Shown here piece after piece: positions 5,701 to 33,507 of a stretch of DNA of 53,208 nt. The position numbers and the translations under genes were made by a program. Source of the DNA: a virus (taxonomy: Duplodnaviria; Heunggongvirae; Uroviricota; Caudoviricetes); the IMG/VR virus record IMGVR_UViG_2671181011_000016, one strand, 5' to 3'. Each line of letters opens with the position of its first letter. Position 1 is the stretch's first letter. Under the pieces are notes generated by a model, which did not search any database, was not told the origin of the DNA, and saw only the letters and a program-made list of their open reading frames with translations.

Positions 5701-7482
5701 TTTGTGTGGATCGTGCTGTGCAGCCTCGATGGTGTACACGCTGTTATTTTCGGTTTCTGCTACGCTAGTGATTCGACACAGAACAGGTTTTGCAGATTCA
5801 GTAGACACGGCGAATACGGTTCCGTTGCGGATCCATGCTGGCGCTTCCGCAAGGGTAATATTGTTTCCGTTAACCCCAGTGATCTGATGTTTTTTGAACT
5901 TGCCGTCGCTGTCCAGTAAGCTGATAGTGTCGCCAGCCGCCACCAGGTCAGAATCAACCTTGTCTACAGTTATCACCTTCCCGTTATTCGCAACGATGCG
6001 ACCGCCCAAACGAGCGCCAGCGCGGTTATTGTCGAGTATCTCGATAATATCCCCTGGCGTGAAGTGAATTGCGTCACGGGCCATTTTAAACGTGAATTTT
6101 GAGGGTTCGCGTTTTGCTGTTTCTATCAGCCATTTGCCAGCGCGGTACGCCTGCCCGCGTGACGTGCAACCGAAAGCCTCCAACGTGGTTTCGTTGTAAC
6201 CATCGCGGGCGATCAGTTCGTCATCTGCCACGTATTCTTTTGATTGTTCCCAACCGTTTTCCGGGTCAGTCCATGACACGATCACGGCGTTGTAAGATTC
6301 TGCGCGGGCGATACTTGAACGAGTAAACGCACCATCAACGACATTAGCATTTGTGATGGTGGCAATTGGATCCTGCGGCGCATCAATCATCACAGTAAGG
6401 CGCTGCCCGTCCCATAACGCGATACCACGGAACATACCTGCAATGTTGTCCAGCAAGTCGCGGGCGCTCATTTGCTCCGTGATGTAAGCGTTAAGCGTCA
6501 TGCGTGGTTCAAGGCCACCGTAACCGTCGTTCACCAACTGGTCGCAGTATTGAGAAAGCGTATACAGTGCGCCATCATCAACGTCGATGTAACCAGCGTG
6601 GCGGGCAAGCCCGAAGCGTTCATTTTTCACCAGATACCGGAAAAGCCATGCAGGGTTATTGGTGTATGCCTTTTTAAAGCCACCAAGCCATAAACCTGAG
6701 TACGTGCGCGTTTCCGGGTCGTAGTTATCAGGCACGTCAACAATCAGGCCGCGCATGTGATAAGTACGTGTCGGCGTGTCAGTATACTGATCGTGGTCAA
6801 TTACCGCGCCTGCTACAGCGGTGTGAGGATAAGATAAATTATCGTCGATTATCTCGCTGTAACTGCTCCACCTGGTGTCGTTGTGAAGTAGATCGCCTGT
6901 GCTGTCTGGCGTTACGCGACGAACGCGAATATCAAACGGTTTTTCATCCGGCGCTTTGATGATGTGCGCTTCGAGGTACTCACCGCTTTGTTTACCCGGG
7001 CCGATGTGAATATCTTTAACCAGTGACCACGTTGTTGAAGATGAAGGCTTAACGTCAACCATCAACGTAACGGATGTATTGTATTGATTGCCCTTATCAT
7101 CTGACTGAACCAGAGAATCAACGCCAAGATTCAGCCTTACGCGGTTAACGTTTGGATCTGAAACGGTCCTGATTATTGGCGTATCGTGAGTCACTTTTGC
7201 GTTGACAATAACGGTTGATTCAATGGCGTTGAAGCCATTGATTGGTGACTGGTCAGCCGTACCATTACGCCACGCCACACTAACGCCGGGGACTGATGTA
7301 CTGCCGTCGCTACCAGTGATAGGCGTGTCATTAAGCATTACGCTGTTTAATGGCGCTTTCTGGTTTACAGGGCCGTATATTGGGCCTTCGCTGAGAATGT
7401 CCAAAACACGATAAAACTGTTTGTGGAACAGGTTATCGTTTAATAGTGTTGGTGTTTTGGCTTTGCCGCCGCCGCTACTCAT
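2716..7482 (-). CDS. J: tail tip attachment / host specificity protein, lambda J-like, with expanded coiled-coil repeat region
   Basis: 1588 aa; N-terminal half aligns by eye with lambda gpJ (ILSEGPI.GPV, PFDIRVRR.TPDST, TLNAYITEQ, EAFGCTSRGQAYRAGKWL); C-terminal part also J-like around the repeat insertion. Confidence 0.85.
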   Translation of the reverse strand: MSSGGGKAKTPTLLNDNLFHKQFYRVLDILSEGPIYGPVNQKAPLNSVMLNDTPITGSDGSTSVPGVSVAWRNGTADQSPINGFNAIESTVIVNAKVTHDTPIIRTVSDPNVNRVRLNLGVDSLVQSDDKGNQYNTSVTLMVDVKPSSSTTWSLVKDIHIGPGKQSGEYLEAHIIKAPDEKPFDIRVRRVTPDSTGDLLHNDTRWSSYSEIIDDNLSYPHTAVAGAVIDHDQYTDTPTRTYHMRGLIVDVPDNYDPETRTYSGLWLGGFKKAYTNNPAWLFRYLVKNERFGLARHAGYIDVDDGALYTLSQYCDQLVNDGYGGLEPRMTLNAYITEQMSARDLLDNIAGMFRGIALWDGQRLTVMIDAPQDPIATITNANVVDGAFTRSSIARAESYNAVIVSWTDPENGWEQSKEYVADDELIARDGYNETTLEAFGCTSRGQAYRAGKWLIETAKREPSKFTFKMARDAIHFTPGDIIEILDNNRAGARLGGRIVANNGKVITVDKVDSDLVAAGDTISLLDSDGKFKKHQITGVNGNNITLAEAPAWIRNGTVFAVSTESAKPVLCRITSVAETENNSVYTIEAAQHDPHKQAVVDEGAIFEVNNDTLNHFRVPNIENLKVLNVGSETVQCRATWETQTTTHRLTFEIRVYNADGRVVATDETTNYRYDFYGLDAGSYTLGIRGRNDTGMKGAESIVDLVIGAPAAPIGVNWVPGVFQATVYPISKTTLTTDTAYEFYYSGENQITDPSKVTTLAQFTGRGYQWTFGGMNTGHKYYVYVRTRNAFGVSDFVEASGKPTENFDEISDYVMKDVMESEQFKDMIGDIKDLGDRADLIESATNDLKNATDNLKTATDNLTNITDELRTDTDSLITETGEIKADTDTLKKETEDLYKKVGENTDGIGQHEVRIDSLEVSSERIDSELAQAKASLQNASLALINNSLAQTNTRVTLTAQYKKGQSETNAQIDRIDNVIAEEKRATAESLKTITAEMNTMDSNLKGQISSVERAVADESSARAEAINNVNASIADLDKKTDASVNRLDQAIADESSARAQAISGVNASISNLESKTDASVSRLDKAISDETQARSDAITEVKADLTTLESNTNASVSRLDKAIADETSARSEAVSDVNASISALDKKTAASVKRLDQAIADETSARSEAISGVNASINTLESNTESEVSRLDQAIADEASARAQAISGVNASISTLDGKVTSNVTRIDKAIADETKARTDAISSLNSSLTSTINSKVSEVSTALSTHEASSAEKFGQISASFDSVNSSITEWSQAMATADEALSSKIDQLTVTVNGNTTAIETTSKALTDFKGNVDATYSIKLATDNNGMKYATGMSLGLTGNGTNVQSQCIFLVDRFVLMTAANGTYTTPFYVSNGAMYVKEAFIKNASIGTAKIADAAITMAKIVNEIKSSNYVAGSNGWRITKDGSSEFNNVVVRGEVHASSGKFSGSLEAKTFIGDVANMYTGSDVSRLADGVLEKTITYNDTSNAAHSRHICVMANVKGFGGCTIIIGSSEKSLSMNGDERLVMHSSSVTSRGVTVKIRVSAQNSRGAYINSPTVIVSRGSGSFSG
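3760..4460 (-). repeat. in-frame tandem repeats (about 7 copies of a ~105-bp / 35-aa unit) inside J
   Basis: Protein shows repeated units SVSRLD(K/Q)AIADE(T/S)SARSEAISGVNASI...; the antisense ORF track shows matching periodic LALVSSAIAWS units; boundaries approximate. Confidence 0.7.
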
Positions 7483-7495
7483 GGTTTTTCTCCTG

Positions 7496-8026
7496 TTAAC
7501 TTACAACGTCAAGGGCGTCTCTGTTGTTATTTGTGTCTATGCCTAACGATCCGACGTTTGAACCTATTTTCATTTCACCCAACAGGATCGGCACTGGTCT
7601 ACCCTGTCCCACCTTGTTTTCGATGCTGGTGTAGGTGTTGTTAGATATGGTGTTATCTTGTGCGCTTTCTGCTGATGTTTTTATCTTCATGTTGCGAGAC
7701 ATAAAGATCGAGAACGCAACGCTAACAACCGAAACACCGATCAAAATCCAGCCTACAACGCCAATCCCTGCAATACCGCCTTCCACCACTGGCGCAACAA
7801 TGACGGTAGTCCCGTCCGGGTATTTACTGTTAACCGCTGCGGGCGCGGTCTTTTCGTCATAATCCTTTCCGGCAATTCGCAAGCGCAACGGGGTGCTTAA
7901 AAACGCCTTTTTGAACTCATGATTCTGCGCAACCAGCAAGCCAAGCCCCTGCGCTGGCGTATCAACGTTTAAACACACTTTGCCGTAATATCTTCGAAGA
8001 TTGCCCGTAAATCTAAACTTGAGCAT
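7496..8026 (-). CDS. I: tail assembly protein, lambda I-like
   Basis: 176 aa; hydrophobic Gly-rich central segment and C-terminal ...VGQGRPVPILLGEMKIGSNV similar to lambda gpI ...VAQGNVLPVLYGEMRVGSRV; position between K and J. Confidence 0.65.
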   Translation of the reverse strand: MLKFRFTGNLRRYYGKVCLNVDTPAQGLGLLVAQNHEFKKAFLSTPLRLRIAGKDYDEKTAPAAVNSKYPDGTTVIVAPVVEGGIAGIGVVGWILIGVSVVSVAFSIFMSRNMKIKTSAESAQDNTISNNTYTSIENKVGQGRPVPILLGEMKIGSNVGSLGIDTNNNRDALDVVS

Positions 8027-8700
8027 TTGTCAGATCTCCATATTGAATTGGTCTGTCGAACATACGCGGGCCGCATTTGCTCGCGGCGGCTTAACAGTCC
8101 GGCATTGTCATGATGCAAAACAGTGTTATCGCCCAGGTAAATCATCGCGTGACATGGGTCAGCGCCTTTAAACGGCTGACGGATAATCACATCACCAGGC
8201 TGAATGCTTTTCGCGTCAACCATGAAAAACCCGTTCAATGGCAGGTTTTTTATGTACAGGTTTTCCCCACGCAGCCACCACCCATCGTGGCGCTCAAAGT
8301 CCGGTAGATCCACGCCGCACAGGTGATAGGCATCACGGAAAAGCGAATAGCAATCTGTTTTCCCGTGCTCAAATTTACGGCCCAACAGGTGCGCCACCGG
8401 GCGGAATTTTCTAACCCTGCCACCGGAACACAAATACCACGGCAGGCCGGAAATAACCTGCTGTTGTCGATCCCGCGCTGACAATACCAATGAATCATTA
8501 GTATGTGAGTGGAAAACGGCTGTTATAACACCCAATTCGTCAGCTTTGATATAATCGTCAGGCGAGATTTTAAAGCTGTTGTGCGGCGTTTCAGACACGT
8601 TAGCGCACGGGTAAAAATAATCGTTATCTATCACCAGCCCGCACACTTCCTCGCGCGGGTGGGCTGCCGCATAGCGAATCATTTTATCTTCAAGTGCCAT
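7969..8700 (-). CDS. K: tail assembly protein, lambda K-like (JAMM/MPN plus NlpC/P60 domains)
   Basis: 243 aa; JAMM-like HSH..D motif (AVFHSHTNDS) and C-terminal Cys-containing NlpC/P60-like part; position between L and I. Confidence 0.7.
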   Translation of the reverse strand: MALEDKMIRYAAAHPREEVCGLVIDNDYFYPCANVSETPHNSFKISPDDYIKADELGVITAVFHSHTNDSLVLSARDRQQQVISGLPWYLCSGGRVRKFRPVAHLLGRKFEHGKTDCYSLFRDAYHLCGVDLPDFERHDGWWLRGENLYIKNLPLNGFFMVDAKSIQPGDVIIRQPFKGADPCHAMIYLGDNTVLHHDNAGLLSRREQMRPAYVRQTNSIWRSDKCSSLDLRAIFEDITAKCV

Positions 8701-8702
8701 AA

Positions 8703-9407
8703 TTAACCGACCTTACTGGACCCAGGGAAGCAGGAAATCGGTAACGGATTCGGGCGCGGGAAACGCAAACGGCAACCGCTCAGGCGGTGGCTGCACTTAT
8801 CCAGCTTCGGATCACTGGTGGGTTCGTCTTTCTCAGTAGCTACAGGGCCGCCACTGTATCCGCAACCGTCGCCGCGATATTGCCATTGGCAAACGTCAGC
8901 GAGGATTGTGCGCCCTGGGATAACCGCCTTGTCAGCATCAATTGGCGTTGATAGTTCATATTGCACCTGGTCGGCTGTTTCTTCGCTCATCGCCTCAACG
9001 ACGTAAAAAGATACCGCCTCGATAGACGGATCTGCATCAGGGTTGCCATTGGGGAAGTTGACAGCGTCCAGGTATTTTACTTCCACCTGGCGGCGCGTAA
9101 CCTTCATTCCTCGCAGGTCGTTGAAATCGTTATTCATCCCGGTGATTAGCCCGCCAATGTTGGCTACAACCATTTGGGGGCGTGAGTAAACGCCTTCGTT
9201 TTTCATTTCGAAGCCAGTAGCCTCGATTGGGTAGCTGTTGTAAGTCACTCCCTTCCAGATAACCGGGCCGTAATAGCCATTCGCGCCTGAATGGAAGCGG
9301 ATAACCTCGCCACCCAGTGGCGTGAGGTCTAATTCAAACAAGTCAATTACCGCGCCGACTCCGGCATCCACGGAATCAATAATCATTTCTGTAGGTATGC
9401 TGCGCAT
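8703..9407 (-). CDS. L: minor tail protein, lambda L-like
   Basis: 234 aa; strong by-eye match to lambda gpL (RFLDAVNF.NGN..ADP, C.W.YRGD.CGYSG, DKCSK.LSGC). Confidence 0.85.
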   Translation of the reverse strand: MRSIPTEMIIDSVDAGVGAVIDLFELDLTPLGGEVIRFHSGANGYYGPVIWKGVTYNSYPIEATGFEMKNEGVYSRPQMVVANIGGLITGMNNDFNDLRGMKVTRRQVEVKYLDAVNFPNGNPDADPSIEAVSFYVVEAMSEETADQVQYELSTPIDADKAVIPGRTILADVCQWQYRGDGCGYSGGPVATEKDEPTSDPKLDKCSHRLSGCRLRFPRPNPLPISCFPGSSKVG

Positions 9408-9460
9408 TTTATCACCTTGTCATTTTGTGATCTCAATCACGCTAAATCATGCCAAAACGG

Positions 9461-9489
9461 TTGATCGCGTTTTTTACAATATGTATATT
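9461..9489 (+). promoter_or_regulatory. sigma70-like promoter of moron cassette A
   Basis: -35 TTGATC, 17-bp spacer, -10 TATATT; about 17 nt upstream of the first + strand gene; an inverted motif variant ATCACAAAATG lies at 9421-9432. Confidence 0.5.
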
Positions 9490-9505
9490 GTACTCAAAAG
9501 GAAGC

Positions 9506-9691
9506 ATGGTTAACAAAATGGCGCGGAGGTGTGAAATGGATGATAAGGTGTGGAGGTTGGCGGTGTTCCTTGCGGATGGCAGGAAAATGACTGTGGCCCT
9601 GTATAAAGATGAAGGCGAGGCACTTACCGACGCGCTCTTACTCGCTGAAGACGAACGCGTTTTGGGGTACAGGATCGAACCTGTCAAATGA
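9506..9691 (+). CDS. hypothetical protein (moron A1)
   Basis: 61 aa; RBS AAAGGAAG before ATG; start chosen among three in-frame ATGs; no recognisable domain. Confidence 0.5.
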   Translation: MVNKMARRCEMDDKVWRLAVFLADGRKMTVALYKDEGEALTDALLLAEDERVLGYRIEPVK

Positions 9692-9705
9692 GAGGTTAAC
9701 GAAAA

Positions 9706-10056
9706 ATGCAAAAATACTCGTTAGAAGTGTGGACCGATAAATGTGAATGGGAGCGCATGGGCCTGTTTGATACATATGTCGAAGCTCGTGATGAAGGTCG
9801 CGAATTGCTACGCTGTTGGTCTAACGCTCGTGATTTTGATATTACTCCGGTCCAAGTACCTGACAAGGTGGAAGAGATGAACCCGAAAGATATTAACTTT
9901 AACGTCAATGTTGAATTTGCAGGCTCTATGGATCAGGCTTGCCCTGGTGAAATCCACGCAAAAGGCTTCCCGGCTGACGATCCTGAGGCAAAACGCGAAT
10001 ACGAAAAAGCGGCGAAAGACTTCTGCATTGATAACCTGGGCGCGTTCGATAAATAA
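9706..10056 (+). CDS. hypothetical acidic protein (moron A2)
   Basis: 116 aa; RBS GAGAGG; rich in Asp/Glu; no recognisable domain. Confidence 0.6.
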   Translation: MQKYSLEVWTDKCEWERMGLFDTYVEARDEGRELLRCWSNARDFDITPVQVPDKVEEMNPKDINFNVNVEFAGSMDQACPGEIHAKGFPADDPEAKREYEKAAKDFCIDNLGAFDK

Positions 10057-10065
10057 GGCGGCAAC

Positions 10066-10314
10066 ATGGGGCGGCGCAATCACGGCGATTATGTGTACAC
10101 GTTGAAACAGGCCGCCCGCCTCGTCGGTTATCATGAGCACGAATTTATTGATTTGCTGATTGAGCGCGGGATACTGTACCAGGTATGTTTAACGCTGTAC
10201 CCGAAAGCAAAATACCTACAGGAAAAGTTATTCATCATCATGACGGATGAAAACCAGGTTAATCATTCATTCGTCACTGATAATGGCGTTAATTATCTGC
10301 GTGATAACTTATAG
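10066..10314 (+). CDS. hypothetical small protein with possible HTH (moron A3)
   Basis: 82 aa; RBS AAGGCGG; segment LKQAARLVGYHEHEFIDLLIERGIL looks helix-turn-helix-like. Confidence 0.5.
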   Translation: MGRRNHGDYVYTLKQAARLVGYHEHEFIDLLIERGILYQVCLTLYPKAKYLQEKLFIIMTDENQVNHSFVTDNGVNYLRDNL

Positions 10315-10322
10315 GACTGTAT

Positions 10323-10526
10323 ATGTTAAAGTACGACGGTCAAAAAATGGTTAGGTTTACGGGTTTTGCTAAAGGTAACAATAGAGAATTAACAGAGTAT
10401 TACAGTTTAAATATTGGTGACGTTTACCGCGTGGAAGAATGTCTGCATTCAATTAATTCTTTAATAATTATAAATAAAGAAAATCAAGGGGTGCTTGTTA
10501 CATTTAACGAAGTGGAGTTACCTTAA
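10323..10526 (+). CDS. hypothetical protein (moron A4)
   Basis: 67 aa; tightly packed after A3; AT-rich codons. Confidence 0.45.
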   Translation: MLKYDGQKMVRFTGFAKGNNRELTEYYSLNIGDVYRVEECLHSINSLIIINKENQGVLVTFNEVELP

Positions 10527-10616
10527 TCAATAAAGCGACGAAGTGATTGGAAATGTTTTGGTAGTGGTTGGCGCGATTGCCATCGTTTATGCCTTTCTGA
10601 GCTAATGGAGTGGATC

Positions 10617-10754
10617 ATGAAAATCGAAGTTTTAGCGCTAATCGCAATGGGCTTGATAGTATTTGGCGTGCACGCTGCGGATTGGGACTGGAGCGCAATA
10701 GCTGAGAATATGGCGCACGCTCACCCGATTGGATTAGTGCACATGAATTTTTAA
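10617..10754 (+). CDS. small hydrophobic protein (moron A5)
   Basis: 45 aa; N-terminal hydrophobic stretch IEVLALIAMGLIVFGVHA (signal/TM-like); RBS GGAGTGG. Confidence 0.45.
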   Translation: MKIEVLALIAMGLIVFGVHAADWDWSAIAENMAHAHPIGLVHMNF

Positions 10755-10795
10755 CACAAACCCCGCTTCGGCGGGGTGTTATAGGTAGGTGAGAT

Positions 10796-10972
10796 ATGAA
10801 AGAGGGTGTGACTTATCAGCATGTGTATACATTTGAAATTTACCGCATATGTGATGGTTATGTTGAAGAGTATAAAATCTTCCCCCGTGGATACTGGAAG
10901 AGAGTTAAGATTTCTGTAAGGTTATTAAAGAAAATGTTTAAAAAAGGATTAATTCAAGAAATTGATTTTTAG
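10796..10972 (+). CDS. hypothetical basic protein (moron A6)
   Basis: 58 aa; RBS AGGTGAG 6 nt upstream of ATG. Confidence 0.5.
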   Translation: MKEGVTYQHVYTFEIYRICDGYVEEYKIFPRGYWKRVKISVRLLKKMFKKGLIQEIDF

Positions 10973-10980
10973 TAAACAAT

Positions 10981-11020
10981 AAAAAAAAGGGGGGGGTACC
11001 CCCTTATTGTTTTATTTGTC
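10981..11020. terminator. rho-independent terminator ending moron cassette A
   Basis: A8 run, G-run / TAC / C-run hairpin, then TTATTGTTTTATTT. Confidence 0.65.
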
Positions 11021-11098
11021 GTGACAACTTTCTATTTCATAGATGATCGTCATTCCTACCGCGATAATAAATACCATTACTAAGCCATCAACCAGCAT
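11012..11098 (-). CDS. micro-ORF encoding a 28-aa hydrophobic peptide
   Basis: MLVDGLVMVFIIAVGMTIIYEIESCHDK; ATG 2 nt after the stop of the upstream gene (TAATATG); single predicted TM helix. Confidence 0.35.
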   Translation of the reverse strand: MLVDGLVMVFIIAVGMTIIYEIESCHDK

Positions 11099-11099
11099 A

Positions 11100-11285
11100 T
11101 TAAACACCCTCAATCAAGAATAAATATTCCTTCCCTTCGTAAGATCTGCACCCCACGTACCCGTCGCCGTAGTCATGCAGATACCAGGTATCCCCTTTAT
11201 CACTCACCACTGTGAGATTATCGATCTGGTAGTCTTCGAATAGCGTAAATGATTCATCGCCAGCTTTAACGCACATCCCGTACAT
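11100..11285 (-). CDS. hypothetical protein coupled downstream of M
   Basis: 61 aa; strong RBS AAAGGGGG; start directly after the M stop. Confidence 0.5.
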   Translation of the reverse strand: MYGMCVKAGDESFTLFEDYQIDNLTVVSDKGDTWYLHDYGDGYVGCRSYEGKEYLFLIEGV

Positions 11286-11295
11286 ATTGCCCCCT

Positions 11296-11649
11296 TTAAT
11301 TCATCACTTGCTCAAACGTCGCGGTTAGCGTGAATACAGGGCCGTCCTTCGTCATGCTCCATTTTCGGCAGACAAAAAGCCTTTGCACCCCATCCATCGA
11401 CGGCGACCAGTAAAAAGCCTCGACAGCGCCGCGCGCCCTCAAGAATGCTTCCGCCTGGATCGCTACATTCCCACCATCGCCGCATCCTGCACTACTGCCT
11501 TTAAAAACCAGGGTGTAACTATCAAGCAACGTGTTAATCCCTTTCGCCTGGCGCTGTTCATAACCATCACCAAGTTTAACGACCGACACATTTGGTTCCC
11601 TGGTCACGCTGTAGCTTCTTTGCGGCGTCCATCTGAAAACTTCTGGCAT
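11296..11649 (-). CDS. M: minor tail protein, lambda M-like
   Basis: 117 aa; matches lambda gpM pattern (FRW.P...GDGY.QR...G.N, KWS......ATFEQV.N). Confidence 0.8.
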   Translation of the reverse strand: MPEVFRWTPQRSYSVTREPNVSVVKLGDGYEQRQAKGINTLLDSYTLVFKGSSAGCGDGGNVAIQAEAFLRARGAVEAFYWSPSMDGVQRLFVCRKWSMTKDGPVFTLTATFEQVMN

Positions 11650-11735
11650 GATTCCCCCTATAAGTTACATATTGCATACATCTTTACGCGCTTCTACGCG
11701 AAAAATGAGAAATTCATCACAAGAATTATAACCAG

Positions 11736-11777
11736 TTTACAAAATGGCTTCACATAGGGCGTGACAAGATGTATATA
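11736..11777 (+). promoter_or_regulatory. sigma70-like promoter of moron cassette B with upstream TTTACAAAATGG motif
   Basis: motif 11736-11747, -35 TTCACA (11749-11754), 17-bp spacer, -10 TATATA (11772-11777). Confidence 0.6.
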
Positions 11778-11818
11778 GAAAGCAAGAAGAAAAAGCAGTA
11801 CCGACAAAGGGGGACAAT

Positions 11819-11974
11819 ATGGAACGCTATGTGGTTGTGATGCTGAACAACGCATTCGAACAGGTGGAGGTGGCGATAGTCAAAGGCTTTGATGACGCAT
11901 TCAAATACGGTCAATTCATGATGAACGCGAAGGAAAATGAGTACCGTGATTTCTTCCTGAAAGTGGTCAACTAA
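11819..11974 (+). CDS. hypothetical protein (moron B1)
   Basis: 51 aa; RBS AAAGGGGGA; MERYVVVMLNNAFEQ... Confidence 0.55.
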   Translation: MERYVVVMLNNAFEQVEVAIVKGFDDAFKYGQFMMNAKENEYRDFFLKVVN

Positions 11975-11992
11975 TGGATTGCGGGGTGGGTT

Positions 11993-12247
11993 ATGAAATT
12001 GGTAGCGATTGGTAAAAATCTGAAAGCACAGAAAAACGCACAGGACCGGATCATCAAAAAGGGCAAGGCTTTATTAAATGCTTTCCTGAGAAAAGAGGCC
12101 ACCCCCAAAAAATTACGCGATGGTTACGGTTATAAATTTGATATTAACCCCGATTGGCGGTTATTCAGCGAAGATTTAAAGGCGTGGTTAATTATCGACC
12201 ATCTGGAATATAACAGACACTGTGGGGTTAAAGGGGCGCATAAGTAA
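11993..12247 (+). CDS. hypothetical basic protein (moron B2)
   Basis: 84 aa; RBS GGGGTGGG; Lys-rich N-terminus. Confidence 0.55.
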   Translation: MKLVAIGKNLKAQKNAQDRIIKKGKALLNAFLRKEATPKKLRDGYGYKFDINPDWRLFSEDLKAWLIIDHLEYNRHCGVKGAHK

Positions 12248-12354
12248 GGCGGGCATGAAGGGCGATAAATTCACCCGGCGGGGGAACTGGAATGTTTGAC
12301 AGGTAATTTTGGATAGGGTGTATCGCGCGGAATGGTTGTTTATAAATACGAAAA

Positions 12355-12388
12355 TAGCCCCGGCATTGTACCGGGGTTTGGTTTATTT
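12355..12388. terminator. bidirectional rho-independent terminator (moron B / tape measure gene)
   Basis: hairpin CCCCGG-CATTGTA-CCGGGG followed by TTTGGTTTATTT; overlaps the TMP stop codon. Confidence 0.65.
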
Positions 12389-14731
12389 GCGGCGAGGTTG
12401 CAACATTCCTCCGGGTCGCTGCGATTCCCTTGCCATCATTTTCATCGCGACGCGTTCCATCGTCTGTTCAAGTCTGCGACTGTCTTCGTCGCTAAATCCG
12501 TTTGTGGTCTGTACGGTGATGTTAACAGGCATATTGATGCCGCCGCCGCTGAAGAGATCACGGCCAGGAATTACCCTACCATTCTCGCCAGGAATCATAT
12601 ACTGACGCCCATTGCTCGTCTGGAATAGCTCTGGGATTCCGTGCTCACCTACGCGATACAGGCTGCCACCATTAACAGAACCACCATTATAACGCCCGCC
12701 ACCAAAGATTGACGTTGCCAGCGACATGATCGCAGAAAGCGCCGCAGCACCAGCCGCCGCCCAGCTACCACCAGTTGACGCCGCAGTCGCCGCCGCCGCT
12801 GGGGCCGCCGCCGCTGCAATCTGGCCTTGTGCCGCTACTGCGCCAGCCGTTGTACTTGCCTGGGTAGCCTTGCTTTGCGTTTCCATCATCAATTGATCTG
12901 CTATCCAGTTAGCGGCAATTTCTGACAGTTTGTTGCCAACGGTGTTAAGTATGCTACTTCCCAGGTTGGCGAAAACCTCGCTTAATGATTGAGTGCCGTT
13001 TAGCAGTCCGGTAAGGGCATTACCCATGCCACCCTTCAGGCCGCTGACGCACGCACCAATCAGGCCGTTTGTTTCGCTTTGCGCCTGCCATTGTTCCCAT
13101 TTCAGATCTCTGATCTGTTGTTCATATTCCAATAGCGCCTGTTTCTGTTGCGCCTCTGTAGCGCCCAAGTCTATCAGCATTTGTTTGCGAACGGCCCATT
13201 CATTTTGTGCCTGCTTGATTGGGTCAATTTCTCCCTTAAGCTGGTCCATCGGGCTGACTATGTGATCCCATTTGTCGCGTAGCTCATCAACAGGGATTTG
13301 CGCCAATTCGTCCTTCAGTTCCTTGCCTATCCCTTTCTGCGCGGCCTTGTACTCAAGTAGGGTTATTTTGCCCTGGGCGAATGCAGCTTCAATGGCCTTG
13401 CCGTTCTCTAATGCGTTGCGCATAGCGGCGGCGTCCTTGTTGTACTGGTCGGACACTTTTATGCCTTCATCACCAAGCCGATCAGCTTCAGATTTCTTGT
13501 CCTTTTTGCCCTTTTTCCCTTTTTTAGGCTTACCGACTGGCTGATCGAATCCGGTGATCTTGCCATCGTCAGCCTCATCCTGTTTCTGCATTAACTCATC
13601 ATAGGCGGCGGTCGCGTTTTTAATGTCGTTTGCAAACGTCATGACTTTGCCGACGGTGGGGCCAAATTTTTTCTCGTTGTTGCTGTTTAGCTCTTCCTTG
13701 CGTTTATCGACGATCTCCTTCATCCACTTGTAACCATCCATTAGCGCTTTGATTGGCGTTACCATTTTGATGATTTCTTCCGCCACCTCACCAGCCTTAA
13801 CAGCAACGTCGTCAAACATGTCGATGAACTCGTTACCAGCGGTTTTAAGTGTGTTGAAACAGGTTGCGGCGAATTTTGCGCCTTTACCCAATCCCTCAAC
13901 GCCACTAGTGATTAAGTCTATTGCTGTTACAACGCCGTCAGATATGCCGAAAAGATCATCAAGCTGTTCGACAAGTCCCATAACCTCAACTTTAAGCTCG
14001 TTGAAGGCCATGCCGGATGTGCGCGGCAACTGTGCGAACTTCTCGTTTGTTTCCTGCGTAGCGGCCTGGATCGCGTTAAGCATCCTTTCAGCCGTGATCT
14101 TACCGTCCAGCATTTCAGCGCGGAACTGACCCATAGACAACCCCATTTGGCGGGCCATTTCCTGTATGATTGTTGGTGTGTTGTCACGTATTGAGTTAAA
14201 TTCCTCAGCCTGCAACACGCCAGCATCAATAGCCTGGCGGAACTGAAGCATGGAGTTTGATAGTTGTTCCGCAGACACGCCGCCCAGGTTGCCGAGTTTT
14301 TGCAGCGTGCTAACCAGGTTGAGTACCTGGCCTTCTGTAGCGGATGTGTTTTTTAGCGATATAGCAAGACCTTGCCACAGGGCACCAGTATCCTTAAGGC
14401 TTTGCCCTGTTTCTTTTGATATATCTTTCAGTCTGTTGAAAACACGCTCCGTGGCCTCCGCTTCACCTGTAAGCAGTTTGATTTTTACGCGAAGCATTTT
14501 CGCTTGCTCCGCCATGTCAATAAACTGGCGTACAGCCTCCGCAGCAAGTAGCAAATGGATAACCCTGGATAGCGCTTTGATTGAAGTCTTAAGCGTGTTC
14601 ACCTGGCGGTCAGCGCGTTTTGCGCCACGCTCGATGCTGTCAAAAGCCTGGTCTGCCTGTCGTTGAGCAACGAGAAGTTGACCAGTTTTTGCATCAACTT
14701 CGTAGTAAATTGTACCTAAACTAGTTGCCAT
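12383..14731 (-). CDS. tail tape measure protein
   Basis: 782 aa, largely alpha-helical and Ala/Gln/Lys-rich with a Gly-rich C-terminal part; sits at the lambda H position upstream of M. Confidence 0.85.
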   Translation of the reverse strand: MATSLGTIYYEVDAKTGQLLVAQRQADQAFDSIERGAKRADRQVNTLKTSIKALSRVIHLLLAAEAVRQFIDMAEQAKMLRVKIKLLTGEAEATERVFNRLKDISKETGQSLKDTGALWQGLAISLKNTSATEGQVLNLVSTLQKLGNLGGVSAEQLSNSMLQFRQAIDAGVLQAEEFNSIRDNTPTIIQEMARQMGLSMGQFRAEMLDGKITAERMLNAIQAATQETNEKFAQLPRTSGMAFNELKVEVMGLVEQLDDLFGISDGVVTAIDLITSGVEGLGKGAKFAATCFNTLKTAGNEFIDMFDDVAVKAGEVAEEIIKMVTPIKALMDGYKWMKEIVDKRKEELNSNNEKKFGPTVGKVMTFANDIKNATAAYDELMQKQDEADDGKITGFDQPVGKPKKGKKGKKDKKSEADRLGDEGIKVSDQYNKDAAAMRNALENGKAIEAAFAQGKITLLEYKAAQKGIGKELKDELAQIPVDELRDKWDHIVSPMDQLKGEIDPIKQAQNEWAVRKQMLIDLGATEAQQKQALLEYEQQIRDLKWEQWQAQSETNGLIGACVSGLKGGMGNALTGLLNGTQSLSEVFANLGSSILNTVGNKLSEIAANWIADQLMMETQSKATQASTTAGAVAAQGQIAAAAAPAAAATAASTGGSWAAAGAAALSAIMSLATSIFGGGRYNGGSVNGGSLYRVGEHGIPELFQTSNGRQYMIPGENGRVIPGRDLFSGGGINMPVNITVQTTNGFSDEDSRRLEQTMERVAMKMMARESQRPGGMLQPRRK

Positions 14732-14768
14732 GATTTAACCTCATGAAAGTGTGATCTACGTCTCTATT

Positions 14769-14811
14769 TTATACAAAATGGCTTCACTTCAACGAGTACA
14801 TTTTGTATAAA
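14769..14811 (+). promoter_or_regulatory. sigma70-like promoter of moron cassette C with upstream TTATACAAAATGG motif
   Basis: motif 14769-14781, -35 TTCACT, 17-bp spacer, -10 TATAAA (14806-14811); inverted motif copy CATTTTGTATAA overlaps the -10. Confidence 0.6.
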
Positions 14812-14887
14812 GAAGATAAAGGAAAGGGATAGAACGAAGGGACTTAAAAGGCCGGATTAACCGGAGGAAGCAAAAGAGGATAAGAAA

Positions 14888-14977
14888 ATGAAAAACGTAA
14901 ACTACCGCCCCAACGAACATGAGCGTTATGCCGACTTTATCGAAGAAATGCTGAAAGCACTTAAAAACAAAAACTAA
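14888..14977 (+). CDS. micro-ORF (29 aa) leading moron cassette C
   Basis: MKNVNYRPNEHERYADFIEEMLKALKNKN; RBS AAGAGGA. Confidence 0.4.
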   Translation: MKNVNYRPNEHERYADFIEEMLKALKNKN

Positions 14978-14989
14978 GCGGGGTGAGTT

Positions 14990-15406
14990 ATGAAACGGTT
15001 AATTAGAGCGGCAATGATGGCGGTAATGGTTGGTTTGGCATTCAACGCAAATGCAAACGATGTAATAAATATAAACTGCGATGAAGTAGCAAATAACGTT
15101 GCCGAATACCATAAAATTTTCAAGAAGGAACCCGCAGCCATCAAGGTTTTTTATAAAGCAATTGACAAGCATTTCGAAGGTAAAGCAGTTTATGCAAGAT
15201 GGTTTAATTATGGGCTTGTGAAGGAGGCTGCTGTAGGTGTCGTATTCGAAGGTAACAATGAAATAAGAAACAGAATAGCCAACGAGTGCAACGCTGATAA
15301 AGCCGCATTTGCTGAAAGAATATTTAACGAAGGCGGCGCGGGTGTAAAAAATCATGCTATCGTTGATTTAGGTAACGGCAGAATTGAAATTGTAAGGATT
15401 AGATAA
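14990..15406 (+). CDS. Sec-exported small protein (moron C2)
   Basis: 138 aa; signal peptide MKRLIRAAMMAVMVGLAFNANA with AxA cleavage motif; two Cys in the mature part; RBS GGGGTGAG. Confidence 0.65.
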   Translation: MKRLIRAAMMAVMVGLAFNANANDVININCDEVANNVAEYHKIFKKEPAAIKVFYKAIDKHFEGKAVYARWFNYGLVKEAAVGVVFEGNNEIRNRIANECNADKAAFAERIFNEGGAGVKNHAIVDLGNGRIEIVRIR

Positions 15407-15440
15407 TGAGCACTATCAAAAAGCATCATCGACATATAAC

Positions 15441-15465
15441 GCCCGGTTCTACCGGGCTTTTTCTT
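15441..15465 (+). terminator. rho-independent terminator after moron cassette C
   Basis: hairpin GCCCGG-TTCTA-CCGGGC followed by TTTTTCT; overlaps the 3' end of the convergent minus-strand gene. Confidence 0.65.
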
Positions 15466-16126
15466 GCTCGCGTTTTTTCATCAATTCCAGCACCCTTTTA
15501 GCGGCCTCCATTTGCTCATCATAATCACGTTTATTTATCTGAACGTTTGGCTTACGTTTCTCGTTTCTTTCGTCTGGTGGCGTTTTAGCGCGTACAGCGG
15601 CCCTATATCCGGTCATTGTCATGCCCCACGCTTCAGACTCAGACAATCCCAGGTGAGCAACAGCAGAATAAACATACTCAAGGATGTCGAATGTGGGCTT
15701 GTACTCGCCATCCTGGTTTTCGCCCGTGTCTTCTTCTGGACCGTCACCAATTAAACCGTGGAACATGCAGTGTTGCGCCAGTGTGATAACGTCGCTGGTG
15801 GGCATTAATCCAGGCTTTAGCCTCAACTTACCCGAAGGAGTAAAGCTACATTCGCCCAATAACGGGCCTATTTCGCATTCTGAGCAACATTTCAGTATAT
15901 GGATGGACGTTTGCACCAGCTCACCATAACAACGCGCCAGAATTCGATTGCGGAGGTCTGTATCCATTGGCATACGCCGTGGGTATCTGCCACCGTGAAC
16001 CGTTGCGAAATATTCGACCAGTTCCCTGTCACTGCCGATCTTAGCCATTGCAGCAAAGCATGGATTGAACTCGTAACGTCTTCCATCAACCACAACCGCA
16101 AATTGTCCTGTTCGAACATGGATCAT
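15449..16126 (-). CDS. putative tail assembly chaperone (lambda G/GT position)
   Basis: 225 aa from the ATG with RBS AGGGTGA (track ORF extends to 16156); lies between major tail and tape measure genes; acidic middle, basic C-terminus; assignment positional. Confidence 0.45.
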   Translation of the reverse strand: MIHVRTGQFAVVVDGRRYEFNPCFAAMAKIGSDRELVEYFATVHGGRYPRRMPMDTDLRNRILARCYGELVQTSIHILKCCSECEIGPLLGECSFTPSGKLRLKPGLMPTSDVITLAQHCMFHGLIGDGPEEDTGENQDGEYKPTFDILEYVYSAVAHLGLSESEAWGMTMTGYRAAVRAKTPPDERNEKRKPNVQINKRDYDEQMEAAKRVLELMKKREQEKAR

Positions 16127-16181
16127 AGCTGTCACCCTAAAAAATAAAGGGGCCAAATGGCCCCGATGTTAATATTTACTG

Positions 16182-16658
16182 TTACAGTGACGGAACGTCA
16201 CCTACCGTGACCTTGCCAGCGCTTTCGCACTCAATGGACCAGGTGGACACATCGTCGTGCGGATCTTCTTCTTTAAAGGAGGTGCAAAGGAACGGACCTT
16301 CGGTTACGTCGAGCGGGGAAACGAGTTTTAGCCAGACGTAAGGCTGCGCACCAGTTGTTTCGCCAGGGTTAATAACGTGGCGTTTAAGTGCTTTCTGGTT
16401 GTGGATCTCTTCGGTGCGGGATACGCCGTCGCCGGAGAAAGAAACGGACTTGTAAGTTACCATTGATTCTTTGGTATAGTCTGCTGATTTATCAGCGGTG
16501 GCGTCTGCAGTTTCCCATTCTACGGAAAGCGATTTGCCACGCATCATACCTAACGCTTTATAAGCGCTTTCTTCAGGTTTCGCATTAGGGCAAGCGATAG
16601 CGTAAAATGCGGCAACGTCGCGGCCTAAGAACGAACCTTTATCACAAGTCTGAGACAT
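16182..16658 (-). CDS. major tail (tube) protein
   Basis: 158 aa; position immediately upstream of the chaperone/TMP genes; beta-rich composition. Confidence 0.55.
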   Translation of the reverse strand: MSQTCDKGSFLGRDVAAFYAIACPNAKPEESAYKALGMMRGKSLSVEWETADATADKSADYTKESMVTYKSVSFSGDGVSRTEEIHNQKALKRHVINPGETTGAQPYVWLKLVSPLDVTEGPFLCTSFKEEDPHDDVSTWSIECESAGKVTVGDVPSL

Positions 16659-16671
16659 GTTTAGTTACCTC

Positions 16672-17058
16672 TTATCTTGATATGATGGTTTGGAAAGCTA
16701 CGGTGAAGATGAAGCGCCCTTCCCTTGTCTGCATTGCAGGAATCGCGCCAATTGGTTTCATGTGTGTAATTTTATCAGTTTTGTATTCGGTTATCATACT
16801 CTGGCGTATTGCGTCGGCGAGATCTTCCACTTCACTGATATTTGCGTCATTACGCGCTGAAATAACCAGGATGCGGAAATAGTCACGGGTTACAGCTTCT
16901 TCACCAGCCGCCCCGCCGTTTTGCTGTATGACAATATATCTGCTGTTATTGGAATTGGATCGCTCATTCCAGAAACGGGCCTGCAAAATATAACCTTCGT
17001 CATACCCGTGGGACTTAATCCAATCCCTTATTTCGTCGTATACTTCGCTGCGTTTCAT
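16672..17058 (-). CDS. tail terminator / tail completion protein (positional)
   Basis: 128 aa ORF between the head-tail connector genes and the major tail gene. Confidence 0.4.
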   Translation of the reverse strand: MKRSEVYDEIRDWIKSHGYDEGYILQARFWNERSNSNNSRYIVIQQNGGAAGEEAVTRDYFRILVISARNDANISEVEDLADAIRQSMITEYKTDKITHMKPIGAIPAMQTREGRFIFTVAFQTIISR

Positions 17059-17528
17059 GATTGTTTCGTCCAGTACCCAAGTTTTATCGTGTTCCAGATT
17101 TCATTGAAATTATCTGGTTCCTCGAACGCCTTGCGCAAAAATTCAGGTTCCGCGTTTGGATCCCAGTAATAACCCTTCCCGGTGCCGCCGCCGAACTCAA
17201 CTACTTGTTTCGGTCCAAAATCAGAAAGGTTGTTGGTTTTCCCGAAATGCTCGCGAGGCTGTCCCATTAATGTCCCTGGCATGTCATGCACCCATTCAGC
17301 ATAGCGGGCGGTATATCCAACCCTGAGGCAAAGGCCATTGCCGTTTTTCTCGACAGTCTGGTACATACTGTTAATCAAAAAACCCGTATCAACTGGCGTC
17401 ATTCCAGATGCAAGGCCGGATGCAACGTTGCCAACAATCCATAGCACTTCATAAGTCTTTTTGTCTGCTATGTTCCTGATTTCTTCCGTCATTTTCATAC
17501 GGACGCGCTTGACGCCTTTCAGTGGCAT
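17055..17528 (-). CDS. head-tail joining protein, HK97 gp10-like family
   Basis: 157 aa; contains the VDTGFL.NS-type motif typical of the HK97 gp10 family. Confidence 0.5.
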   Translation of the reverse strand: MPLKGVKRVRMKMTEEIRNIADKKTYEVLWIVGNVASGLASGMTPVDTGFLINSMYQTVEKNGNGLCLRVGYTARYAEWVHDMPGTLMGQPREHFGKTNNLSDFGPKQVVEFGGGTGKGYYWDPNAEPEFLRKAFEEPDNFNEIWNTIKLGYWTKQS

Positions 17529-17529
17529 A

Positions 17530-17904
17530 CTAACCTCCCGTGACGATCTTATAGTCCGGCGTGTCGTTAAACATACTCATGTCCCATTCAACGATCCCGG
17601 TTATAAAGTTGGCCCCAGCCGCCAGCGGGTCAGAAATAGCAGTGGTGTCGCCAGTTGCAATCATCCATCCTTTTTCCGGGCGCTGCACTGGCTGCATCTT
17701 GTGAAGCAGTTCGGTATATACGGTTATCGTGTTGCTAACCTCATTCCCGTTTGCGTCTGTTGCGGTTCCGTCAGTGCGTTCCCATGCACAATCAATCAGG
17801 TATGGCGTTCCGTATACATCGGAGTTTGTCCAGTCGTCACGCGTCACGGGGTAAATGGTGGCTAATGCCTTGTAACTGAATCTCGCGATCTTACTCATAG
17901 CCAT
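17530..17904 (-). CDS. head closure / head-tail adaptor protein (positional)
   Basis: 124 aa ORF in the connector gene cluster. Confidence 0.4.
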   Translation of the reverse strand: MAMSKIARFSYKALATIYPVTRDDWTNSDVYGTPYLIDCAWERTDGTATDANGNEVSNTITVYTELLHKMQPVQRPEKGWMIATGDTTAISDPLAAGANFITGIVEWDMSMFNDTPDYKIVTGG

Positions 17905-18076
17905 AGCTCCATTTAACGATTTTCGGATGGGTTTTCGCCACTCGCGGGCAAAGAATCACCCATTCGCCAGCATCATTGAGATAGGCCGCCACCTGTCGCC
18001 CGGTGTCAGTCTTCACCCACACGCGGGTGAACGGCTTCGGCAATAGCGGTTTAGGTAATGTAAGGTCATTCCACAT
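17891..18076 (-). CDS. hypothetical small protein in connector cluster
   Basis: 61 aa ORF overlapping neighbours by a few nt. Confidence 0.35.
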   Translation of the reverse strand: MWNDLTLPKPLLPKPFTRVWVKTDTGRQVAAYLNDAGEWVILCPRVAKTHPKIVKWSYGYE

Positions 18077-18078
18077 TG

Positions 18079-28701: not shown

Positions 28702-28730
28702 ATTTTAATCTGTTTGTTTTCGACCCACAA
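28702..28730 (-). promoter_or_regulatory. candidate late promoter (pR'-like)
   Basis: minus strand -35 TTGTGG, 17-bp spacer, -10 TAAAAT, 25-40 nt upstream of the terminator hairpin. Confidence 0.45.
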
Positions 28731-28738
28731 ATACGGCT

Positions 28739-28966
28739 TTAACGGTAAGGGCCAAGCAAACGAACAAGCCATTCTTTGTATTTGGCGGCGACGTGTTTCG
28801 GTGCAAAATATCCTTGCACTTCCTTACCGCCTCGCCACTCCCTTCTAAATTCGCATTCGTTTTGATACCCCTTTCCGCTTTTACTATCCAGCCAGCAAGC
28901 AGGCGAGTAACCTTTTTCACTCCCGAACCGATGCCATATTAATGACAGCAAAATCATTTCTTCCAT
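28739..28966 (-). CDS. hypothetical protein
   Basis: 75 aa ORF; stop codon begins the 18-bp duplicated junction element. Confidence 0.45.
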   Translation of the reverse strand: MEEMILLSLIWHRFGSEKGYSPACWLDSKSGKGYQNECEFRREWRGGKEVQGYFAPKHVAAKYKEWLVRLLGPYR

Positions 28967-28987
28967 ACTGCCCCCACAAATACGGCT

Positions 28988-29164
28988 TTACCGCTTCCTG
29001 TATATCAGGCCATTATCAAGCAGCATTTGCATGTGCCAACGATCCACCATGCTTGATTCCCAGCATTTATTCTCTGGATACTGAATCATCACCTTATCAC
29101 CTTTAACCAAATAGGCGATATTAAATAACATGTGCAAATAAATACCGTCTTCGATCTCGTTCAT
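28988..29164 (-). CDS. hypothetical protein
   Basis: 58 aa; ATGA overlap with upstream gene; stop codon begins the second copy of the 18-bp element. Confidence 0.4.
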   Translation of the reverse strand: MNEIEDGIYLHMLFNIAYLVKGDKVMIQYPENKCWESSMVDRWHMQMLLDNGLIYRKR

Positions 29165-30864: not shown

Positions 30865-30908
30865 TATATAACAAAACGGCACTGCCGTAACAATGCCATT
30901 TTGTATAC
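30865..30908 (-). promoter_or_regulatory. sigma70-like promoter with upstream GTATACAAAATGG motif
   Basis: minus strand: motif (30896-30908), -35 TTGTTA, 17-bp spacer, -10 TATATA (30865-30870). Confidence 0.55.
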
Positions 30909-30916
30909 TTTGTGAT

Positions 30917-33282: not shown

Positions 33283-33495
33283 TTACCACATCATATAATA
33301 AACGTTCTCGTCAGCTAACATGTCAGCCACATCCTGCGTCATGTGTCTGGCCTCAAGGAAAAAATCCTCACTATGCCATTCCCTCACAAGCATACGCGCC
33401 CATTTACGGCGCTGGCGTTTATTACGTCGCAGATCATCAAAAGCCTTTAATGCTTTGTCGTATGCCCTTACAAGGCGCTTACGGTTACTTTTCAT
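33283..33495 (-). CDS. small basic protein, tandem paralog 1
   Basis: 70 aa; MKSNRKRLVRAYDKALKAFDDLRRNKRQRRKWAR...; about half of the first 40 residues are identical to the adjacent gene. Confidence 0.5.
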   Translation of the reverse strand: MKSNRKRLVRAYDKALKAFDDLRRNKRQRRKWARMLVREWHSEDFFLEARHMTQDVADMLADENVYYMMW

Positions 33496-33507
33496 TTTTC
33501 ACCCCAA

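Follow-up and report, generated by a model that had tools for sequence, protein, structure and literature searches.

A conserved 34-nt element before the portal and minor tail protein M genes of mEpimmI-group phages: a candidate leader operator

Why should a phage keep two copies of one short sequence, one just before the portal gene and the other just before the gene for minor tail protein M? The question arises in the window analysed here, i.e., the whole 53,208-nt stretch of IMG/VR record IMGVR_UViG_2671181011_000016, in which the late and structural genes lie on the minus strand. A first-pass annotation of this DNA had pointed to two copies of a shared element, and a repeat finder returns them as a 34-nt element (family D18) with 88% identity between copies (30/34). 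The direct repeat then described, with its 4-nt spacing and following A-tract, is present in both: on the plus strand, each copy reads TACGCG-N4-TACGCG and then AAAAAT. On the minus (coding) strand the element reads ATTTTTCGCGTAG(AAG/CAA)CGCGTAAA(G/C)ATGTAT(G/T)CA or, by blocks in gene sense, ATTTTT-CGCG-TAG-(AAG/CAA)-CGCG-TAAA-(G/C)ATGTAT-(G/T)CA. The shared core is T5-CGCG-TAG-NNN-CGCG-TAAA, and the copies lie as follows:

11673-11706, minus strand: element copy A, minus-sense ATTTTTCGCGTAGAAGCGCGTAAAGATGTATGCA, upstream of M in 25/25 distinct orthologous sequences
11687-11700, minus strand: copy A core, with 5' arm CGCG (11700-11697), loop UAGAAG (11696-11691) and 3' arm CGCG (11690-11687)
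23570-23603, minus strand: element copy B, minus-sense ATTTTTCGCGTAGCAACGCGTAAACATGTATTCA, in 43/43 distinct orthologous TerL-portal spacers
23584-23597, minus strand: copy B core, with 5' arm CGCG (23597-23594), loop UAGCAA (23593-23588) and 3' arm CGCG (23587-23584)

The bases of the copy A core double as two 10-bp-phased CGCGTA repeats. The distance from the end of copy A to the M start codon (ATG 11649, SD GGGGG) is 23 nt, and that from the end of copy B to the portal start codon (ATG 23557, SD AGGAG) is 12 nt, which we take as agreeing with the 15-25 nt originally proposed.

A search with TTTACGCGNNNCTACGCGAAAAAT, a 24-nt pattern with three free positions, finds only these two sites in the 53-kb window at up to three mismatches, and none in 100 shuffles. 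The 70 nt upstream of copies A and B align no better than shuffled sequence (P = 0.70). The likeness is therefore confined to the 34 nt, and the unit is a module rather than a duplicated promoter region. A -10 hexamer shared by the two sites (TATAAT vs CACAAT) was considered and dropped, CACAAT being CACAAC or ACAAAT in relatives. Coding roles were rejected on both strands: the plus-strand frame, FTR(F/C)YAKN, lacks a conserved start and is interrupted by indels, and the ATG inside the element on the minus strand is lost in most A-site variants.

The surroundings of copy A show how transcription would reach it. The gene names M, portal and TerL given in the first pass are upheld by the Pfam matches listed here and below; Pfam also recognises a CI-like repressor.

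10987-11005, both strands: predicted bidirectional intrinsic terminator closing the M operon
11100-11285, minus strand: 61-aa ORF co-transcribed with M, a homologue of mEp021 gp70 (phrog_3249) with an acidic sequence
11296-11649, minus strand: minor tail protein M gene (PF05939, E = 9e-29)
11725-11753, minus strand: P_M, a predicted sigma-70-type promoter with -35 GTGAAG (11753-11748), a 17-bp spacer and -10 TATAAT (11730-11725)
11749-12247, plus strand: inverted cassette between the tape-measure gene and M, consisting of a promoter, a 51-aa ORF and a toxin gene
11749-11777, plus strand: predicted cassette promoter TTCACA-17-TATATA
11819-11974, plus strand: 51-aa ORF of the cassette
11993-12247, plus strand: ParE-like toxin gene (PF24732)
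12356-12378, both strands: predicted bidirectional intrinsic terminator after the tape-measure gene, which also ends the plus-strand cassette

The cassette is of the toxin-antitoxin type. A 170-bp divergent control region separates it from M, and the cassette and terminators separate M from the rest of the late operon. P_M scores 10.14 in a simple PWM, which places it in the top 0.015% of window positions and level with the PR'-like promoter; a consensus scanner missed it because its -35 matches at only 3/6 positions. Its TATAAT has zero diversity between two variable flanks, and its -35, spacer and -10 are identical in 25/25 distinct orthologues, always 16-17 nt before the element. From this arrangement, transcription is expected to start near 11718, which would put copy A at approximately +13 to +46 of the M leader. 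Since copy A lies 16-17 nt downstream of the conserved P_M -10, it would be transcribed into the M leader; and with P_M upstream, M and the 61-aa ORF behind it and a terminator after them, M forms a small self-contained operon with the element in its leader. Neither P_M nor the isolation of M by the cassette and terminators had been noticed in the first pass. Pairing of the copy A leader's 5' end with the SD/AUG, which appears in the minimum-energy fold, was rejected as a mechanism: judged by eye, the complementarity is lost in the second A-site haplotype.

Copy B has a different setting, the spacer between the terminase large subunit (TerL) and portal genes:

22187-23557, minus strand: portal gene (PF06381), with its true start at 23557, served by AGGAG
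23636-25120, minus strand: TerL gene (PF17289), with its stop codon 32 nt upstream of copy B
23633-23662, minus strand: promoter-like TTACCG-18-TAAAAT overlapping the TerL stop codon (PWM 7.58)

ORF listings and the mEp021 GenBank record place the portal start at an upstream in-frame ATG, 23578, inside the element. The AGGAG ribosome-binding site (RBS) lies downstream of that codon and serves the second ATG, 23557. The spacer is 78 nt long; its 5' part is variable, C-rich and G-poor, and its 3' part is near-invariant from the element through the RBS to the first portal codons. In some relatives, 70 nt have been inserted immediately behind the TerL stop codon, and the element there is unchanged. 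The promoter-like site keeps its score of 7.58 in 21/43 distinct orthologous sequences, has A or C as its last -10 base in 12/43 (scores 3.1-5.8) and is missing from other variants. Being so variable among relatives, it is not a conserved promoter, which leaves copy B without one upstream; this copy is presumably reached by late-operon transcription. A possible antisense promoter that the first-pass annotation suggested on the plus strand at copy B (TTGTGG/TAAAAT) is not supported by conservation. It is weak, its spacer being 19 bp and its PWM score 6.94 (reached by 0.23% of window positions), and the best plus-strand site downstream of the element uses TAAAAT as its -10 in just 11/43 distinct orthologues, with varying -35 hexamers.

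Is the element conserved? By nucleotide similarity, the window is an mEpimmI-group phage and a relative of mEp021. It shares 87-90% identity over 84-96% of the tape-measure/M region with the Mexican E. coli phages mEp010, mEp554, mEp044 and mEp021, and 88-94% identity at the TerL-portal junction with these mEp phages and MagusPhagus. The mEpimmI phages are a recently described group of Nus-dependent, non-lambdoid temperate phages, and, apart from three early nut sites, the group's description names no promoters, operators or late control elements (PMC11893012). The element is not described in the accessible literature.

Loci were retrieved by protein similarity to M and portal and so independently of the element sequence. 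The element is in all mEpimmI-type IMG/VR contigs (30 M loci and approximately 50 portal loci, on approximately 80 contigs), and every relative examined has a copy at each site covered, never more than two per contig. An exact-core scan of IMG/VR finds the full element in the mEpimmI group only; approximately 15 outside matches share the core without the flanks and are therefore taken to be chance matches. A portal-based scan of species-representative genomes found no relatives. Beyond the group, portal homologue identity falls from 80-94% straight to 61%, and the 61%-identical relative has a TerL-portal spacer of similar length (79 nt) with no element. Nor is there an element in Klebsiella phage RAH1 (15-nt spacer), in ES18 (different genes at this position) or in phages whose M is approximately 70% identical, where M directly follows the tape-measure gene or a terminator.

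Diversity, calculated as the pairwise average over distinct sequences, is 0.011 in copy B, while copy A gives 0.077 as a whole and 0.016 in its core. Around copy B, third codon positions have values of 0.22 in TerL and 0.155 in portal, and the spacer 5' of the copy has 0.165; on the two sides of copy A diversity is 0.24 and 0.16. The element is thus approximately 15-20 times less diverse than neighbouring synonymous or intergenic sites, a constraint equal to that of non-synonymous sites (0.017-0.028). Conservation in related phages, on which the first-pass annotation had staked its proposal, is therefore found at both sites in every relative examined, at 0.011 (B) and 0.016 (A core) vs 0.15-0.24 in the flanks. 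On this comparative evidence, the element is a genuine, strongly selected and group-specific cis-regulatory module.

Its internal anatomy was read from an alignment of 34 distinct variants. Invariant or nearly so are the T-run, both CGCG blocks, TAG, TAAA, and then a fixed T, A and C in the 3' part. The triplet between TAG and the second CGCG varies freely (AAG, AGG, AAT, AAA, CAA, CTA, CGA or a 2-nt AT), and the variants contain two indels, one in the U-run and one in the loop. In some genomes the triplet typical of one site is present at the other, a sign that the copies exchange sequence, which suggests that A and B are functionally equivalent. Because CGCG is self-complementary, the core can be read in three ways: as a hairpin of RNA or DNA (UUU/AAA, then a U.U mismatch and CGCG/CGCG, with a fifth pair, U-G or U-A, in some cases), as a direct repeat with a 10-bp period (YGCGTAR-N3-YGCGTAR) or as a near-palindrome (TTTWCGCG-N6-CGCGWAAA).

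Which of these readings does the variation favour? Across the eight hairpin pairs and 34 distinct variants, 98% of helix cells are paired and five of the eight pairs never vary. A search of these pairs for compensatory double changes found none; as no pair has changed on both sides, covariation is uninformative either way. Fold z-scores of -1.2 and +0.3 are no better than those of shuffled sequence, and the copy B centroid fold keeps the hairpin alone, at -6 kcal/mol. The hairpin is preserved, then, but neither compensatory change nor significant folding energy backs the RNA structure suggested in the first pass. The 16 helix positions have seen three substitutions: a C to U giving U-G, a C to U giving G-U and a U to C at the mismatch. 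All three are structure-neutral in the sense RNA and not in the antisense RNA; the rough probability of three neutral changes out of three by chance is 0.02-0.07 (27-42% of possible changes are neutral, and the sample is small and post hoc). These substitutions, along with the placing of the indels in the U-run and loop, weakly favour RNA. To a similarly weak degree, DNA is favoured by the C to T change at the same position of each repeat, the TA after both CGCG blocks and the fixed stem sequence. One lineage (A17, two samples) has a 1-nt deletion between the repeats, and this loss counts against a phased dimer.

We lean, with modest confidence, towards an operator in the leader that acts after transcription initiation, counting its RNA and DNA forms together. 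The element would be a 34-nt recognition module between the point where transcription arrives and the RBS of portal and of M. In the form that acts on mRNA, the likelier of the two but held only tentatively, the sense transcript would fold the core into an irregular hairpin whose loop has a fixed 5' half (UAG) and a free 3' half. A sequence-specific factor, probably phage-encoded, would bind this hairpin and set the translation or stability of the downstream cistron, so that portal (the head-assembly initiator) and M (a tail-tip protein) would come under common control. The element exists, is under strong purifying selection, keeps a fixed orientation and a leader position at both sites, and all its variants are compatible with the hairpin; action on RNA rather than DNA, a trans-acting factor and the direction of the effect are inferred. 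A leader operator is also favoured by there being two copies where none is expected by chance, both of them in leaders, and by their presence throughout the mEpimmI relatives examined.

Several points weigh against the mRNA form. The near-invariant stem fits sequence-specific DNA recognition equally well, and the TA after each CGCG creates a 10-bp-phased repeat for which a hairpin has no need. Translational operators of the classic kind usually cover part of the SD or AUG, but between this hairpin and the SD there are 13 nt in copy B and 28 nt in copy A. It is also small, and to its lack of covariation and unremarkable z-scores can be added an Rfam search (cmscan of 11000-24500, E up to 5) with no match at either site. 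With only two copies, a shared orientation would arise by chance 50% of the time, and a search of the neighbouring ORFs turned up no candidate for an RNA-binding protein. Of the options offered in the first pass (a translational operator, an RNA structure or a promoter-like site), conservation supports the shared cis-regulatory element that they have in common; the data are compatible with action as RNA and as DNA alike, and the sigma-70 score is poor.

That poor score bears on the promoter-like option. An unaided sigma-70 promoter was rejected, as a consensus scan found none and the best in-element PWM scores are -0.7 (A) and -1.1 (B) vs 10.1 for P_M. The element could instead be a self-contained, activator-dependent (late) promoter, which we consider rather unlikely. 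The CGCG-N6-CGCG dyad or direct repeat near -21 would then be an activator site replacing the -35, AAANRT would be a weak -10, and the conserved C-A that closes the module at its 3' end (11673 and 23570) would be the start site. Repeats of a short motif before blocks of phage genes are often promoters, and the repeat of the P1 late promoters is centred near -22. These promoters number 11 in P1, and Lpa binds a 9-bp inverted repeat in each (PMC10695390). In the present element, TTTTCGCG and CGCGTAAA form an inverted repeat at 7/8 positions, centred approximately 21 nt before the putative start, although the promoter score within the element is poor. The unit shared by A and B would span approximately -33 to +1 and ends in an invariant C then A or G, the 3'-part invariants in that register being A(-11), T(-7), A(-4) and C(-1); an internal start at portal would raise head-gene transcription relative to terminase. 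However, the in-element scores are reached by 15-17% of positions, there is no -35 and -12 is A. Copy A would fire 45 bp downstream of a strong, conserved promoter already serving M, and the mRNA from copy B would begin at the SD, with a 12-nt leader. The tape-measure and L genes likewise follow inverted cassettes, yet have no element. A lambda-type Q (PF03589) is already present in the phage, as is a PR'-like promoter with a terminator behind it. No Lpa-like or other late activator was found among the 20 ORFs between Q and the lysis genes or in the M-adjacent ORF, and Pfam returned nothing relevant. The DNA form of the leader operator, for which lac O1 is a roadblock-type precedent, is in our judgement unlikely. 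Here, a phage or host protein on the two 10-bp-phased YGCGTAR repeats (equivalently, TTTWCGCG-N6-CGCGWAAA) would block polymerase coming from P_M or reading through from TerL, so that M and the head genes stay silent until relief. The core spans 22 bp with its repeats on one helical face, and both tolerated stem changes fall at the first base of each repeat. Relative to the strong P_M, which would otherwise be constitutive in the prophage, the copy A core occupies approximately +19 to +36. Mycobacteriophage stoperators offer a precedent, as repressor sites dispersed through phage operons at which elongation is halted (PMC9283540). Against such a roadblock, the A17 deletion alters repeat phasing, a conserved TAG beside a free NNN is unexpected for a symmetric dimer, copy B lacks a conserved upstream promoter and no protein emerged as a candidate. 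Such a block would probably not stop polymerase modified by Q. A third copy at up to three mismatches is absent from the window, including the surroundings of the repressor gene (44688-45335), and with no copy or near-copy in the immunity region, the immunity repressor is not the ligand.

Two further readings are each very improbable. The hairpin could be a boxB in a nut-like antitermination site, where the N-like Gp17 would make polymerase termination-resistant in the structural region. The phage's candidate boxB hairpins (CGCU-GAAA-UGCG, CGCU-GCGA-AGCG and GCCGC-UGGAAGU-GCGGC) also have 4-5 bp GC stems and purine-rich loops, one element variant has the loop UGGAAG and terminators lie downstream of both sites. 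But the usual loop is UAGAAG or UAGCAA, which starts with UAG and is not GNRA-like (GGAA occurs in one variant only), and no boxA (CGCTCTTTA-like; GCTCWTTAA at up to one mismatch) was found in 7342-13282 or 18746-25687. The phage's probable nut sites, each a boxA with a hairpin, are at approximately 44280, 36842 and 45500, which agree with the published early-region positions: the group has three (nutL, nutR1 and nutR2 of mEp021), near gp15, gp17 and gp32 (PMC11893012). Both copies of the element are in the structural region, and the short M operon needs no antitermination. The other such reading gives the element no regulatory role, making it either what remains of a short duplication or a linker for recombination whose copies gene conversion keeps alike. 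The triplets swapped between copies in some genomes do mean that the sites exchange sequence. However, diversity 15-20 times below that of adjacent non-coding DNA, in dozens of genomes with differing flanks, speaks against a lack of function, and gene conversion between two copies alone cannot hold a sequence constant across lineages.

The element was also compared with known classes. No intrinsic terminator is predicted at either site, where the minus-strand T-run precedes the hairpin and the plus-strand A-run follows it. The PR'-like region of the Q system shares nothing with the element, and host-factor motifs (CpxR GTAAA-N5-GTAAA, RfaH ops GGCGGTAG, dif and the PhoP/RstA/NarL boxes) give partial matches only. 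The SAS/ESAS repeats of Cluster K mycobacteriophages, for which a role in translation initiation has been proposed, resemble it in being short, group-specific, in one orientation immediately upstream of starts and kept when their neighbours differ; ESAS, moreover, is an inverted repeat whose spacer varies and for which covariation does not back an RNA hairpin (PMC3203893). However, SAS contains the SD, lies 3-7 bp from the start and precedes approximately 10-20 genes in the non-structural half of the genome (PMC3203893), whereas the present element has no SD, ends 12 or 23 nt before the starts, occurs in exactly two copies before structural genes and has no sequence similarity to SAS. Cluster A stoperators (L5 gp71 type) are likewise asymmetric, sit in short intergenic spaces within operons in one orientation and act after initiation, but they have the same sequence as the operator at the early promoter, serve as binding sites for the immunity repressor and occur in many copies (PMC9283540). 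Read as a promoter, the element would resemble the Lpa-dependent late promoters of P1, in which a conserved short inverted repeat goes with a -10 that is weak or ordinary and with no -35, and which likewise recur before blocks of late genes (PMC10695390). The element differs from them in having two copies rather than 11 and no recognisable activator, in a phage with a lambda-type Q and with copy A transcribed from P_M. Lambda-type nut sites, too, place in a transcribed leader a small hairpin that has a GC stem and a loop rich in purines, and they depend on orientation, but the element has no boxA and no GNRA-like loop, and is in the late rather than the early region. As it fails the defining features of SAS/ESAS, stoperators and P1 late promoters, we regard it as an analogue and not a family member of these.

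The element offers a clean experimental handle: it is near-invariant, has exactly two copies and stands before two assembly-starting genes, and copy A additionally belongs to the leader of a small operon that is bounded by terminators and driven by a strong promoter of its own. Identifying the ligand would reveal how tail genes stay expressed despite the inverted accessory cassettes that split the tail cluster, and whether synthesis of portal and of the tail-tip initiator is co-ordinated. We see it as a long shot that the element is the operator of an unrecognised circuit, in which a dedicated factor reads the RNA (or DNA) signal and couples or times head and tail-tip assembly apart from the Q-driven late operon; if so, the starts of two assembly lines, portal and M, would be coupled or timed. 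If the element is only a promoter or simple operator, it would be useful for annotation but ordinary. The mEpimmI phages are reported to equal lambdoid phages in how commonly they occur in human stool samples (PMC11893012). In a degenerate-pattern scan of metagenome contigs, the matches listed include random AT-rich sequences and at least eight true copies of the element, with no new variants among these.

A second motif, GCCATTTTGTAWAC, is repeated in the window, with 22 matches at three or fewer mismatches vs 8.7 expected. Its sites lie on both strands, among them:

9509-9522, 11735-11748, 14769-14782, 36859-36872 and 40453-40466, minus strand, GCCATTTTGTAWAC motif
30895-30908, 36926-36939, 44565-44578, 45408-45421 and 49210-49223, plus strand, GCCATTTTGTAWAC motif

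Copies of the motif flank the repressor gene and are also found upstream of three tail genes (L, M and tape measure). The motif also adjoins the -35 of strong sigma-70-like promoters, i.e., that of the N-like gene (TTGACT-17-TATATT, near 44556-44528) and, likewise, a plus-strand cassette promoter (11749-11777). It may be an operator or activator site common to the early promoters and to those of the inverted cassettes in the tail region. The mEpimmI group paper (PMC11893012) contains no description of this motif.

Cassettes on the opposite strand break the tail gene cluster at three places, and each has a divergent control region that faces whichever tail gene follows (L, M or the tape-measure gene):

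9449-10526, plus strand, cassette with a KilAC/ANT-like antirepressor fragment (10066-10314)
11819-12247, plus strand, cassette with a 51-aa ORF and a ParE-like toxin
14990-15406, plus strand, cassette with one 138-aa ORF alone

The window also holds four TGTGAT-N4-ATCACG palindromes, three exact and one with a single mismatch, a sequence that forms the core of the CRP consensus:

9426-9441, 30911-30926, 36903-36918 and 40497-40512, TGTGAT-N4-ATCACG palindromes

Three of the four are 3-31 nt from a copy of the GCCATTTTGT motif, and a degenerate version of the palindrome (TGTGATGAATTTCTCA) sits at the transcription start inferred for the M promoter.

Candidates for nutR1, nutR2 and nutL were located in the window, and on sequence features these are probably the sites themselves:

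about 44280-44235, minus strand, candidate nutR1
about 36842-36800, minus strand, candidate nutR2
about 45500-45535, plus strand, candidate nutL

In all three, a boxA (GCTCATTAACAA or GCTCTTTAAAAA) precedes a short GC hairpin whose loop is of the GNRA type. The candidate nutR2 and nutL have GCTCTTTAAAAATCCGG in common, which agrees with the published likeness of this pair, the most alike of the mEpimmI nut sites (PMC11893012).

At the TerL-portal junction, a subset of relatives (L089, L102, L103, L106, L108, L109, L116, L118, L125 and L132) has a 70-nt insertion that immediately follows the TerL stop codon and precedes the spacer. The insertion contains a palindrome, CTTCGAAAAATTTTCGAAG, and element B (the repeat copy before the portal gene) is unchanged in these relatives. 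In the GenBank record of mEp021 (L003; 20267-20279 there, 23557-23578 in the window), the portal CDS begins at an ATG within element B, and the record's own annotated RBS (AGGAG) falls within the annotated CDS. The true portal start is likely the codon 21 nt downstream of the annotated one. NCBI gives many portal homologues of 60% identity from Enterobacter and Citrobacter genomes (among P0009-P0117) the name 'anti-CBASS protein Acb1 family protein'. These homologues nevertheless match the portal family PF06381, and the naming looks like a propagated misannotation.

After the lysis genes comes a 194-aa ORF, and between it and terS are approximately 12 tandem tiny ORFs of 22-37 aa (25613-26621, minus strand). 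Each is dominated by a single hydrophobic stretch (e.g., MDAYVIAGLIGVSVFLVGFIIAVLIATKSKC), and they look like an array of paralogous single-pass membrane peptides. A 75-aa ORF has on both sides an 18-nt exact repeat, TAAAGCCGTATTTGTGGG (28724-28741 and 28973-28990, minus strand; 0 expected by chance), and is also bordered by two control elements:

29039-29012, PR'-like promoter TTGGCA-16-GATAAT, on one side of the ORF
28674-28656, strong terminator, on the other side, directly before the holin gene

The gene for the large tail protein (1588 aa, tail fibre/J-like) contains five tandem 108-nt (36-codon) repeats of 64-72% identity (3751-4446, minus strand). A 46-nt direct repeat of 89% identity (33454-33499 and 33655-33700) is present because two adjacent small phrog_8758 genes (33283-33495 and 33508-33696, minus strand) are paralogues.
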